From the NCBI GenBank assembly GCA_963755025.1, contig CAVWIH010000018.1, positions 1 through 48,813 on the forward strand: a DNA stretch of 48,813 nucleotides, in the 5' to 3' direction. This document shows, one piece after another, positions 45,571-48,813 of this stretch. This DNA is from an uncultured Actinomycetes bacterium (GTDB lineage Bacteria; Actinomycetota; Thermoleophilia; UBA2241). The stretch's first letter is position 1. Every line of letters starts with the position of its first letter. The notes under the pieces are model-generated. The model saw only the letters and a program-made list of their open reading frames with translations. It searched no databases and was not told the DNA's origin. The translations under genes and the position numbers were made by a program.

Positions 45571-46712
45571 TCAGCCTGCGCGCACCCCCTGGTCGAGGTA
45601 CGCCCTGACCGCCGCGTACTGGCTGGGTCGGCGGTGACCTCGGCGAGCGAGCGGTAGAAGCCCTCGGAGCAGAGCTTGTGGCCGGCGCCGTGCGAGGCGC
45701 GGCCCTCGACGCCGTAGTGCCAGCCCTTGCGCGTGCGGTAGACGAGGGCGGTGGGCTGGCCGTTGTCGATGCCCGCGGCGTAGCGCTGGGCGGCCACCAC
45801 CTGGCCGAAGTCGTGGCCGTCGGCGACCTGCACGACGTTCCAGTCGTGCAGGTAGAACAGCTCGCCGGGCTCCCACTGCACGTAGTCGCCGGGGGTGTCG
45901 CCGCTGCGACACACGCGGTCGCTGTCGATCGAGGCCTGGTTCCAGTCGAGGTGCACCGTCACGTTGGCGAGCGAGGCCGTGCCGGCGGCGGCCAGGGCTT
46001 CGCTCACGCGCCCCGGCGTGAGCCCGCCCTCGCCCTCGGAGACGTGGACTGCCGGGCAGTCGGCGCCGTAGTGGTCGCGCGCCGCCATGGCCAGGCCGAT
46101 CGAGCTCGCCAGGCCCACGCCCGAGGCGCCCGTCGCCAGGCGCACGAACGGCGTCGCCGGCGTGGGGTGCCCGTCGAGCGCCCTGGCGCGCCTGGCCACG
46201 AAGAGCGGCGTGGCGGTCGTCGGGTTGCGGCGAAAGCCGAGCAGGTCTTCGAGGCGCAGGCGCTGGCGATCGTCGGCGGGCAGCAGCTCGGGCGTCGCCA
46301 GGCGGGCGACCTCGTCGCGCAGCGCCCACAGCGCGTACAGGCCCATGGCCTTGTGGCCGGCCGCGTACGAGAGCACGTCGGCGTCGTCGCGGTCGGGAGC
46401 GCCCAGGTCGTAGTCGAGCGCGTCGAAGAGCAGCGGCCGCGGTGAAGCGCCCCGCCGAGATGGAGCCCCCCGGGTGGCCCGAGGTGGGCACGTAGTTGAA
46501 CAGCAGGGCGCACAGCGCGCGGTAGAGCAGGTCGAGGGTCTCGAAGGCGGCGAGCTCGGCCGGCGTGAGCGGGGCGGCCCGGACGTCTGCGCGGCGCCTG
46601 CAGACGCCCGAGCGGCCGCGGCCGCCGTCCAAGCCCGCGCGCCATCGGCAGCCGGCTGCCATGTCGGCGTGATTCCGCCGTCGGCCGGCCCTCGCACGTC
46701 GACCACTCTCAT
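45571..46712 (-). pseudogene. Transketolase-like TPP-binding N-terminal domain only; several frameshifts; middle and C-terminal domains absent
   Basis: SGHPGGSIS, AAGHKAMGLY, LDGHPTP, ATGASGVG, EGEGG...DWN (GDG-like TPP motif), DGHDF, RTRKG...SHG; the stitched frame ends after about 380 codons. Could be an assembly artefact rather than a true pseudogene. Confidence 0.7.
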
Positions 46713-48813
46713 CGGGCTGCGCCGTCCTCCGCGCAGCGAACGCGCGCCAGCTTCTCGAGCTCGTCGCCCAGCTCGTCGGCGCCAAAGCAGAACCGCAGCT
46801 CGACGAAGCGCGCGCGCAGCGTCGCTGCACCTGGCTCGCCACGCGCGGCGTCGCGCAGGACGACGTCGGCCATGAGCCCGGCGAGCTCGCCGAAGTCGTC
46901 CGGGCGCATGCCGAAGCGGGTCATCTCGGCGACGCCCAGGCGCAGGCCGCCGGCGGCGGTGAAGGCCTCTTCGTCGGGCAGCCCCTGGTAGTTGCAGAGC
47001 ATGTTGCTCGCCTCGAGGCGCGCCGCCATCTCGTGGCCGCGCCCGTAGCCGACCCGACGACGACCTGGTGGGTCTCGGTGAAGTCGATCGCCGGGTCGCC
47101 CTGCACGTCGAGGCCGGCGTCGCGCAGCGCCCGGGCGAAGGCCTTGGCGTTGGCGATGACCTGGCGGCTGGTAGGCGTCGCGAAAGGCGCGCATCTCGTA
47201 GGTCGCGAAGAGCAGGCCCAGCAGCGTGCCCAGGTGGTGGTTGGAGACCGACCCCGGGAAGGCCCGGCGGCGCAGCGCCTCCCAGAGCTCGTAGCGCTCG
47301 TCGGCTCTCGACGAAGCGGCCGCCGACCACGCCGCGCTGCGTGCCGAAGAAGGTCTTGTGGGTCGAGCCGGTGACGAGGTCGGCGCCCTCGGCGAAGGGC
47401 TCCTGGAAGTGCGGGCCGAGCAGGCCGAGCACGTGGGCCGCGTCGTAGAGGACGACGGCGTCGATGCCCTGCTCGGTGAGGAACCGCCTGATCTCGGCGA
47501 CCGGCTCGCGATGCAGCACCATGCTGCGCCCGAAGATGATGAGCTCGGGCCGGTGGCGGGCGATGAGCTCCTCGCGTGGCGGGCACGTCGACCAGGTAGG
47601 GGTTGTCGTCGCGCATCGGCGAAGTTCACGACGGCCGGCGCGTCGGTGCGCGGATCGCGCGCCACGAAGTCGCGCAGCGCGCCCATGGGCTGGGCGCTCA
47701 GATGCCCGCCCTTGCCGATGTGGTTGTTCATGACCATGCGAATGCGCCGCGGCTCGGCCTTGGGGTCGGCGCGGTTGGCGTACTCGACGAGGGCGCTGAA
47801 CACCGCCATGTTGGCCATCTGGCCGCTGAGCGAGGCGGGTCTCGGTCTCGGCGCAGCCGAGGTACGCGGCGAGCTCGGCCTCGAGGCGGCGCTCGACCGC
47901 GGCGATGAACCCGGTGCCCTGGTAGTAGAAGAGCTCGTCGTCGTAGAAGGCCTCGGAGCTGCGGTGCTCGGCGTAGCGAAACGCGGGGTCCATGACCGAG
48001 GCCAGGCGCACGAGCGGCGAGGCCGTCATCTCCGAGGGGATCAGGTTCATGCAGCTCGCGCCTGTCGCCAGGCGGTGTTGGCGATCGTCTCGCGCAGCAG
48101 CAGCCGCGCCTTGCCGAGCGGCGTCGCCGCGCGGCAGCTCGACGCGCCGGCAGCTCGTGGTCGTAGACGATCGGCCGGGCGCAGCGGCGGCGCCTCGCTG
48201 CGCAGGTGGAAGGGCACGACGAGGCCGGGCACCTGCGTGCCGCGGATGTCGACGGTGACGGCGTCGTCCTTCGACGACGTCGCAGTCGAGGTAGGCGCAG
48301 GGCGATCGAGCGCTGGGCGTGCTCGTCGGTCTGGCGCGAGTCGAGGCCCTCGCCGGCGCACGATCCAGTACGGCACCGAGGTGCCGCTCGTCACCTAGTC
48401 CGACGCGGCGCTCGCCCCGAGCAGACCGGCGCGCCGGTGCGGGCGACGCCGCGACCGGCGAGGGCGAGCGGCTGCACGAGGCGCGGCAGGTCGGCTCTGC
48501 GCGAGTAGTCGCGCGCGACCACGCGCGGCGAAGGCGTCGTGCTGGCGGGCCAGGGCGGCGCGGCCGATGAAGTCGCCCTTCAGCGGCGAGAAGCTCACCG
48601 CCAGCTTGGCCAGCGGGATGGCGAAGATCGGGATCTCGGCGCCGTCGTCGTCGCGGCCGAGCTCGAAACCGTAGAGCGGCAGGCCGGCCTCGAGGCGCAG
48701 CGTGTCGCGCGCGCCCAGGCCGGCCGGCGCAGCCCCGCCGGCCACGCAGCGCGTCCCACAGCCGAGCGACGGCCTCGGCGGCCACGAAGAGCTCGAAGCA
48801 GAGGCAGCGATAC
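46709..48813 (-). CDS. Fused aminomethyltransferase (GcvT, C-terminal part visible) and serine hydroxymethyltransferase; 5' end outside the window; many frameshifts
   Basis: Gcv[118 protein letters not shown]. Confidence 0.85.

Follow-up and report, generated by a model that had tools for sequence, protein, structure and literature searches.

The Locus at the Contig End

The window analyzed here is an entire contig of 48,813 nt (CAVWIH010000018.1, hereafter C18, of assembly GCA_963755025.1) from an uncultured Actinomycetes bacterium placed in the Thermoleophilia, UBA2241, by GTDB. The genome has a size of 3.37 Mb, is divided into 39 contigs, is 84% complete and has a GC content of 72%. At the end of the window, peptides resembling GcvT (the aminomethyltransferase, or T-protein, of the glycine cleavage system, GCS), serine hydroxymethyltransferase (SHMT) and transketolase are spread across all three frames of the minus strand between 48813 and 45516, as seen in the open reading frame (ORF) listing and in a three-frame translation. 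The reading that we favor, with a probability of about 0.6, is that this end holds the 3′ three-quarters of a genuine gene encoding GcvT, a linker and an archaeal-type SHMT, that the gene was broken by assembly error, and that its product probably makes one serine from two glycines. The features are collected in Table 1. Next to the broken stretch, der, plsY, gpsA and metK are single clean ORFs, and the order fusion, transketolase-like gene, der, plsY, gpsA, metK is common to the relatives of the same genus.

Table 1. Features at the end of the window, with positions, strand and the evidence on which each assignment is based
Feature	Positions	Strand	Basis
C-terminal portion of the GcvT aminomethyltransferase half, starting near residue 200 of 889	48185..48813	-	Pfam GCV_T; frameshift-aware alignment to L015
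Conserved linker and N-terminal helix of the SHMT-like domain	48051..48184	-	Linker kept across phyla in intact proteins
Archaeal-type SHMT-like domain binding pyridoxal phosphate (PLP), in at least 7 frame pieces	46709..48050	-	Pfam SHMT on pieces; best PDB relative; tree
ATGA tetranucleotide, probably not a functional junction	46709..46712	-	Alignment with relatives
ATG aligned to the conserved transketolase-like start	46643..46645	-	DNA alignment with 7 relatives; N-termini of relatives
N-terminal half of the transketolase-like gene, binding thiamine pyrophosphate (TPP)	45625..46645	-	Pfam Transketolase_N, 43.9 bits; alignment to relatives and to the canonical transketolases
End of the transketolase-like gene: its final 17 codons (SQYAAVRAYLDQGVRAG) and the stop	45571..45624	-	Joined directly to the N-terminal half
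der (EngA GTPase), intact	44197..45519	-	No gaps in alignment with relatives

The raw sequence of the window does not keep GcvT and SHMT in one open frame. To match the minus strand to the unbroken orthologue from locus L015, a frameshift-aware alignment has to admit 19 single-base events from 48523 to 46737: the window has a surplus base in 18 cases and lacks one in the remaining case. With these events read through, identity is 586 of 673 aligned residues, and the reading passes from the GcvT barrel into the linker and on into SHMT without meeting a stop. One additional frame switch lies near 48750, and two more are located in the transketolase-like gene, near 46572-46645 and at 46435. The frame switches are found in each part of the fusion: there are at least seven single-base switches in the GcvT half, whose 5′ part is cut off by the contig end, and several more in the linker region, where frame 2 is open by chance. 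DNA homology to the relatives starts at 48803, which corresponds to about residue 200 of 889, and approximately the first 200 residues of the fusion are lost at the contig end. The final 10 bases of the contig (48804-48813) align to none of nine relatives, the homology of all of them starting at or below 48803.

The individual pieces are nonetheless recognizable by their domains and motifs. Pfam matches on in-frame pieces are GCV_T with 32.6 bits (piece 48512-48811), SHMT with 30.1 and 21 bits, and Transketolase_N with the score given in Table 1. The GcvT and SHMT peptides quoted in the first-pass annotation are all present on the minus strand, and the SHMT-like domain carries the motifs NLIPSE, GSTHKTFFG and FPGSVSNHH. 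The same annotation described an uninterrupted course from GcvT through the linker into SHMT. This holds for the read-through alignment and for the relatives, in which the gene is an intact single ORF, but not for the raw sequence of the window, which is broken; the relatives, not the window, verify the fusion.

The Fusion in Related Genomes

The fusion of GcvT with SHMT is genuine and widespread. A 91-aa piece containing the PLP site has strong matches (E ≤ 1e-39) in 22 of 40 related genomes: within the same genus 10 of 11 genomes match, in the rest of the family 11 of 13, and in the rest of the class 1 of 16. Gene calls in ten relatives gave single ORFs of 860-910 aa in nine cases and a split call in the remaining one, the intact orthologues being 881-901 aa long, and all four relatives that were scanned contain GCV_T (251-263 bits), GCV_T_C and SHMT (101-117 bits). 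In a large protein collection, PF01571, PF00464 and PF08669 occur together in 81 of the best 120 matches, which are 684-916 aa long, the other 39 being shorter pieces; the database name of the fused entries is only "glycine cleavage system aminomethyltransferase GcvT".

A scan with a clade-specific pattern, applied to one genome per species, found 498 stretches that encode a relative, in Actinomycetota, Desulfobacterota, Chloroflexota, Planctomycetota and Zixibacteria. Locus counts, here and below, cover the 80 stretches that were kept. The GcvT match lies directly upstream of the SHMT-like match in 79 of these 80 loci, and the 80th is cut by the start of its contig. Likewise, one ORF spans both halves in 15 of the 17 loci that were inspected, the other two being cut by contig starts. 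Even distant fused representatives, with about 33-38% identity in the SHMT part, still begin with GCV_T. Most of the loci come from metagenome-assembled genomes (MAGs) of Desulfobacterota, which agrees with the mention, in the first-pass annotation, of similar fusions in some anaerobes.

The two halves are joined by a conserved linker of 35-40 residues. An AlphaFold2 (AF2) model of the L015 protein, built with a 30-sequence alignment, has a mean predicted local distance difference test score (pLDDT) of 90.8 and a predicted template modeling score (pTM) of 0.88, with a dip in confidence only at residues 400-420. Its halves match the T-protein 1wos (template modeling score, TM, 0.90) and the Methanococcus jannaschii SHMT 4bhd (TM 0.88), and among the fold matches of this model there is no solved chain that covers both halves. 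In a Desulfobacterales chromosome record (L085:7621-12234), the fusion ORF extends over 1537 aa and takes in a 7TM-HD receptor (domains 7TMR-HDED, 7TM-7TMR_HD and HD), and the SHMT match ends at profile position 362 of 399; either the record is misassembled or a rearrangement has truncated the fusion.

No description of the fusion was found in the full-text literature, a body that leaves most subscription journals outside its coverage. The fusion is apparently unstudied, and its proteins are already present in public databases under the name GcvT.

The GcvT and SHMT Domains

In the intact orthologues, the N-terminal 400 residues pass the NCBIfam cut-offs for GcvT. The L015 protein scores 253.8 bits with Pfam GCV_T, 302.5 with NF001567 (cut-off 300) and 243.9 with TIGR00528 (cut-off 235.85). 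In addition to these cut-offs and to the fold, the fusion shares with solved GcvT proteins (1wos, 1yx2 and 3a8i) the adjacency to gcvH and gcvP, which is seen in most Desulfobacterota loci. It differs from them by a covalent PLP extension of 470 residues. GCV_T has no match other than the fusion in five of five Desulfobacterota genomes, all of sulfate-reducer type, and a separate canonical glyA (537-562 bits) is present in each; the window genome, in contrast, also possesses a separate canonical gcvT.

The C-terminal half is an archaeal-type SHMT. The Pfam SHMT profile matches five fused orthologues over positions 8-398 of 399, above the gathering score, with the 101-117 bits noted above, against 526-562 bits for canonical glyA products. 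The closest solved relatives by sequence are 4uqv and 4bhd, both from M. jannaschii (172 bits), followed by the L-threonine transaldolase 7k34 (108 bits), whereas bacterial and eukaryotic SHMTs reach at most 81.5 bits. The M. jannaschii enzyme is also the nearest in fold, and it shares GSTHKTFFG and FPGxVSNHH with the fused domain. The assignment to the archaeal type, which the first-pass annotation had made from STHKTFFG and FPGSVSNHH, is borne out by these scores as well as by the phylogeny.

The tree is a quick maximum-likelihood reconstruction from 68 rows, with homology-guided domain extraction and SH-aLRT support only. It splits 8 canonical GlyA rows from 60 archaeal-type and fused rows with a support of 100, and places all 19 fused rows in one clade (support 99, stem length 0.7) together with 4 standalone rows. 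This clade nests among standalone archaeal-type sequences. A standalone representative that is 40% identical to the SHMT domain groups with SHMTs of Thermoplasmata, some of them named enzymes, and the standalone representatives that were looked up include members of Schekmanbacteria and Woesearchaeota. The fused domains sit within the archaeal-type family but differ from its other members in forming their own long-stemmed clade, in being bacterial and in being joined to GcvT. With bacterial GlyA they have in common the fold, the Pfam family and the position of the PLP-lysine motif.

The residues expected of an SHMT are largely kept. The PLP-lysine motif STHK is conserved together with RYAEH, FYYQG, YDxAH and RLG, and we take RYAEH and FYYQG to be the motifs that carry the folate-dependent catalytic Glu and Tyr. 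The PLP-binding Lys (T-H-K), the Asp/His pair (Y-D-x-A-H) and the carboxylate-binding Arg, whose roles we assume by analogy with Escherichia coli SHMT, are invariant in a six-sequence alignment (A1) and present in the pieces of the window. The same catalytic residues are nearly invariant in a 30-sequence alignment (A2), where the Lys is found in at least 90% of the sequences.

The M. jannaschii SHMT uses tetrahydromethanopterin, and modified folates are the carriers of the archaeal SHMTs characterized so far (PMC3697235). Since the domain discussed here is fused to a folate-binding T-protein, a folate-dependent partner is the simplest reading, and an SHMT domain with such a partner should use tetrahydrofolate (THF).

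The Transketolase-like Gene and the ATGA Tetranucleotide

The gene downstream of the fusion encodes, in the relatives, proteins of 785-814 aa with weak matches to Transketolase_N and Transket_pyr (62.6 and 43.7 bits) that still clear the Pfam thresholds. These proteins miss all the NCBIfam transketolase cut-offs, the best score being 141 against a threshold of 488, and the ESM Atlas has for the 800-aa protein only the automatic name "transketolase". When aligned to the two canonical transketolases of the window genome, the protein keeps GHPG, GH, HG, SADL, the Glu of the pyrimidine domain, GEDGPTH and the Arg in TR(Q/P), which presumably are the TPP-binding and active-site residues. It differs from them in its length of about 800 aa, with several inserts, and in having GEG instead of GDG in all members. 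Elsewhere in the window genome, at C9:35383-35871 (locus L115), two weak Transketolase_N matches fall within an open frame of 769 aa, which may encode DXS or another long paralogue of the transketolase-like protein.

The copy in the window consists of the N-terminal half only. The relatives can be followed along it as far as about 45629, where the alignment skips ahead to the final 17 codons; about 1.4 kb is missing, including the pyrimidine-binding and C-terminal domains. A tblastn search for the missing C-terminal half across the rest of the assembly gave no match with at least 45% identity.

The first-pass annotation placed the start of this gene at an ATGA in which it would overlap the stop of the SHMT, and read the overlap as translational coupling. 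The tetranucleotide is indeed present in the raw sequence, but its TGA is reached only in a frame made by two extra bases (46747 and 46737). About 24 nt upstream of it, the window reads GGA where the stop of the fusion aligns in the relatives (KLAAFLR followed by TGA). The conserved N-terminus of the transketolase-like proteins, M-x-R-x-F-G-P-R-R, aligns to the ATG at 46645, from which the window reads MARGLGRR, compared to MARAFGPRRA in the relatives. The alignments suggest that the ATGA is probably not the functional start of the gene. Coupling through such an overlap is not a conserved property either: stop and start overlap only in L015/L025, which are one record (TGATG), and in L017 (ATGA), and are otherwise separated by a spacer of about 34-113 nt.

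Gene Neighborhoods

For the comparison of gene contexts, the loci were grouped by record titles into 20 labeled as Actinomycetota and 60 others, mostly Desulfobacterota. Of the actinobacterial loci whose flank is long enough, 15 of 17 have a class-I/II aminotransferase as the immediate upstream neighbor of the fusion. Downstream, the 800-aa transketolase-like gene is found in 10 of 15 and a glycerate 2-kinase in 5 of 15, and 13 of 15 have at least one of the two. A dehydrogenase resembling glyoxylate/hydroxypyruvate reductases comes before the aminotransferase in 6 of the 20 actinobacterial loci. The linkage to the transketolase-like gene noted in the first-pass annotation is real in this lineage but lineage-specific, as the gene follows the fusion in only 1 of 36 non-actinobacterial loci; in the window itself, the copy is truncated.

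Outside the Actinomycetota, the neighbors are those of the glycine cleavage system, in line with the glycine-serine context proposed in the first-pass annotation. GCS and lipoylation genes adjoin the fusion there: gcvH lies inside the upstream flank in 32 of the 40 loci with enough flank (at least 2.5 kb upstream), in contrast to 2 of 17 actinobacterial loci, a genomic proxy which points to partnership with the GCS. Across all 60 loci, the counts are 34 for gcvPA, 32 for gcvPB, 24 for lplA, 20 for lipA and 9 for lpd. A SerB-like gene with ACT and HAD domains occurs nearby in five loci, and the alpha chain of a serine dehydratase in one. Overall, the gene context plausibly fits a one-carbon (C1) module connecting glycine and serine.

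Some loci contain, near the fusion, FAD enzymes resembling glycolate oxidase and D-lactate dehydrogenase (FAD_binding_4 and FAD-oxidase_C), at L075:5169-6665, at L066:2458-5466 and, about 3.2 kb downstream, in L099; one of the three also has CCG and 4Fe-4S domains. Their presence fits a feed from glycolate through glyoxylate to glycine.

Related functions are found elsewhere in the window genome. Contig C31 (60430-62948, locus L001) carries a canonical gcvT (GCV_T 252 bits) directly upstream of a canonical glyA (SHMT 526 bits) on the same strand, that is, an unfused pair in the same order as the halves of the fusion. The gcvH-gcvP genes are on contig C28, where a HAD hydrolase resembling phosphoglycolate phosphatases is just upstream of them (C28:101216-104272); its orthologue in L015 lies upstream of the cluster of aminotransferase and fusion. 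A hydroxypyruvate-reductase-like gene and a glycerate kinase are located on contig C36. A search of this genome, 84% complete, gave no RuBisCO large subunit, and photorespiratory salvage of 2-phosphoglycolate was dropped as a source of C2 units on this ground.

Origin of the Frame Breaks

The frequency of frame breaks was surveyed over the whole genome with a hidden Markov model of codon phase based on GC at third codon positions (GC3), which returned 662 candidate unexplained switches, or 0.197 per kb. Seven of them lie in the final 3.3 kb of C18, the most among 78 contig ends, although internal stretches of 3.3 kb can be equally or more dense, with up to 10 events (contigs C30 and C14). Four other genes of the window, ribBA, ribD, rsmB and the one that follows, are likewise broken up between 31373 and 36869 on the minus strand: each occupies two or three frames and changes frame without a stop. 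The single-base insertions and deletions (indels) of this riboflavin region are of the same patchy kind as those at the contig end.

Selection on the pieces was estimated from the ratio of nonsynonymous to synonymous substitution rates (dN/dS). Compared with L015 and L017, the pieces in the window give 0.25 and 0.31; the intact control der gives 0.28 and 0.29, and the fusion of L015 against that of L017 gives 0.32. Over the parts of the stretch that they cover, contigs from four public short-read runs of soil, peat and bog lack one base at 46435/6, 47165, 47305/7, 47572/3, 47616 and 47832 and carry one extra base at 47053, and these differences fall exactly on the inferred frame switches.

Because ribD and ribBA are similarly broken, because dN/dS equals that of intact genes and because the short-read contigs of related strains do not have the indels, the frame breaks are most likely assembly errors and not gene decay. 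Should they indeed be mistakes in a contig end with poor support, the organism itself probably carries an intact gene, and the stitched frames, the ATGA overlap and the short TPP gene are mostly products of that poor end.

Proposed Function of the Fusion

What the sequences establish is the identity of the domains, their fusion in relatives, the archaeal-type placement and the gene neighborhoods; the activities of the fusion, their direction and any channeling between them are proposals drawn from these. GcvT and SHMT are textbook enzymes that share 5,10-methylene-THF. In the scheme proposed here, the T half would take the aminomethyl group off the lipoyl-H-protein and produce 5,10-methylene-THF, and the SHMT half would combine methylene-THF with a second glycine to give serine. 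The net reaction would convert two glycines into serine, CO2 and NH3. A direct hand-over of the folate between the halves may occur, and the reverse direction may be possible too. In the actinobacterial loci, the preceding aminotransferase, together with the reductase-like dehydrogenase, the glycerate 2-kinase and/or the long transketolase-like TPP enzyme alongside, would supply glycine and carry serine onward through hydroxypyruvate and glycerate to phosphoglycerate.

Several observations weigh against this reading, and the first group concerns the state of the gene. Public contigs of three runs are 99-100% identical to 45000-45639, on the der side, but only about 94-98% beyond it. The contigs free of the indels reach only about 94-96% identity here; as the same runs give 99-100% over der, these contigs belong to other strains and are no proof that the copy of this strain is intact. 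Moreover, the drop in identity (45624-45640) coincides with the junction of the 1.4-kb deletion in the transketolase-like gene. Such a change could reflect a chimeric join, recombination or a strain variant, so that either a chimera at the contig end or true decay of the locus is conceivable. At the junction, two public contigs of 151-153 nt extend 8-12 nt past it and the others diverge at 45627. The indel sites lie outside homopolymer runs, and a homopolymer origin was rejected. Finally, a loss would be tolerable given the canonical gcvT-glyA pair on C31 and, on C36, the gene resembling hydroxypyruvate reductases with a glycerate kinase. A real remnant, in which the indels, the lost stop and the deletion are authentic while these other genes supply the function, would account for some 21 indels and a 1.4-kb deletion within 3.2 kb next to intact der, plsY, gpsA and metK, for the failure to find the other half of the transketolase-like gene in the assembly at 45% identity or more, and for the lack of a public contig at least 99% identical to the stretch among the matches listed. 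We nevertheless regard decay as quite unlikely. It does not explain why the housekeeping genes ribD and ribBA are broken likewise, nor the equally dense patches inside other contigs; dN/dS is not above that of intact genes, the read-through alignment contains no stop codon of the substitution type, and 18 of the 19 events are one-base insertions, a one-sided pattern that is expected from a sequencing process.

The second group concerns the function. The fusion might work in the reductive direction, as a glycine synthase (the GCS in reverse) with SHMT in a reductive-glycine-type route of anaerobes. Both halves would then consume methylene-THF, so that a hand-over would not apply and the fusion would serve for 1:1 expression rather than channeling. 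The preponderance of Desulfobacterota MAGs suits such a route, as do the complete gcvH-gcvPA-gcvPB-lplA-lipA(-lpd) clusters in which the fusion lies there, its position as sole T-protein in the five genomes mentioned above, and the SerB-like and serine dehydratase genes near a few loci. Direction, however, is not readable from sequence; no formate-THF ligase, FolD or formate dehydrogenase appeared among the scanned neighbors (only 76 ORFs of 17 loci), and the neighbors in the lineage of the window point to a route from serine through hydroxypyruvate to glycerate, which makes the reductive reading an unlikely one. A further possibility is that the C-terminal domain has the SHMT fold but works as an aldolase or transaldolase, cleaving, for example, threonine or another β-hydroxy amino acid and giving glycine to the T half and the GCS. 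The SHMT half indeed reaches 228.4 bits with NF000586, below its cut-off of 335, and is accordingly a divergent member; the threonine transaldolase 7k34 is the second-best solved relative, the fluorothreonine transaldolase model also matches (119 bits), and a housekeeping glyA coexists with the fusion in six of six genomes checked. Against this stand the nearest relative in both sequence and fold, a bona fide SHMT, the invariance in alignment A1 of RYAEH and FYYQG, taken as motifs of folate-dependent catalysis, and the fusion to a T-protein that binds folate; a change to aldolase chemistry is very unlikely. The synthesis of serine from two glycines by an intact fusion remains the preferred reading.

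Known Parallels and Significance

The closest parallel in metabolism is the pairing of glycine decarboxylase (GDC) and SHMT in plant mitochondria, where photorespiration converts two glycines into serine, CO2 and NH3, and the serine proceeds to hydroxypyruvate and glycerate. The two reactions in series and the onward route match those suggested by the actinobacterial neighbors, but plants use separate proteins in place of one polypeptide, and the source of C2 units would differ because the window genome yielded no RuBisCO. In architecture, the fusion resembles dimethylglycine oxidase and the alpha subunit of sarcosine oxidase (1pj5 and 1vrq), both among its fold matches, which also join a GcvT-fold domain to an enzyme that makes or uses C1 units. 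These oxidases are a precedent for the hand-over of C1 units inside one protein. Their partner is a flavin oxidase N-terminal to the T-like domain, whereas here it is a C-terminal PLP enzyme. The fusion is a novel form of already known enzymes.

A more far-reaching proposal, which we consider unlikely but worth stating, is that the fusion is a dedicated enzyme for making serine from two glycines with internal transfer of methylene-THF, in an undescribed operon for the non-photosynthetic assimilation of C2 compounds (glyoxylate/glycine) by Thermoleophilia-like Actinomycetota. The operon would consist of the fusion, the class-I/II aminotransferase, hydroxypyruvate reductase, glycerate kinase and the long GEG-type transketolase. 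The last enzyme would use serine-derived hydroxypyruvate as a ketol donor and transfer the ketol unit onto a phosphorylated acceptor, so that C2 units would enter pentose phosphates in parallel to the glycerate branch.

The window copy is a poor exemplar of the fusion family, whose broader meaning lies elsewhere. Database entries named only "GcvT" conceal a second catalytic domain, and for the engineering of glycine/serine or reductive-glycine pathways the fusion is a part that nature already supplies. An ancient and widespread natural fusion of this kind would be direct genetic evidence of selection for coupling both steps.

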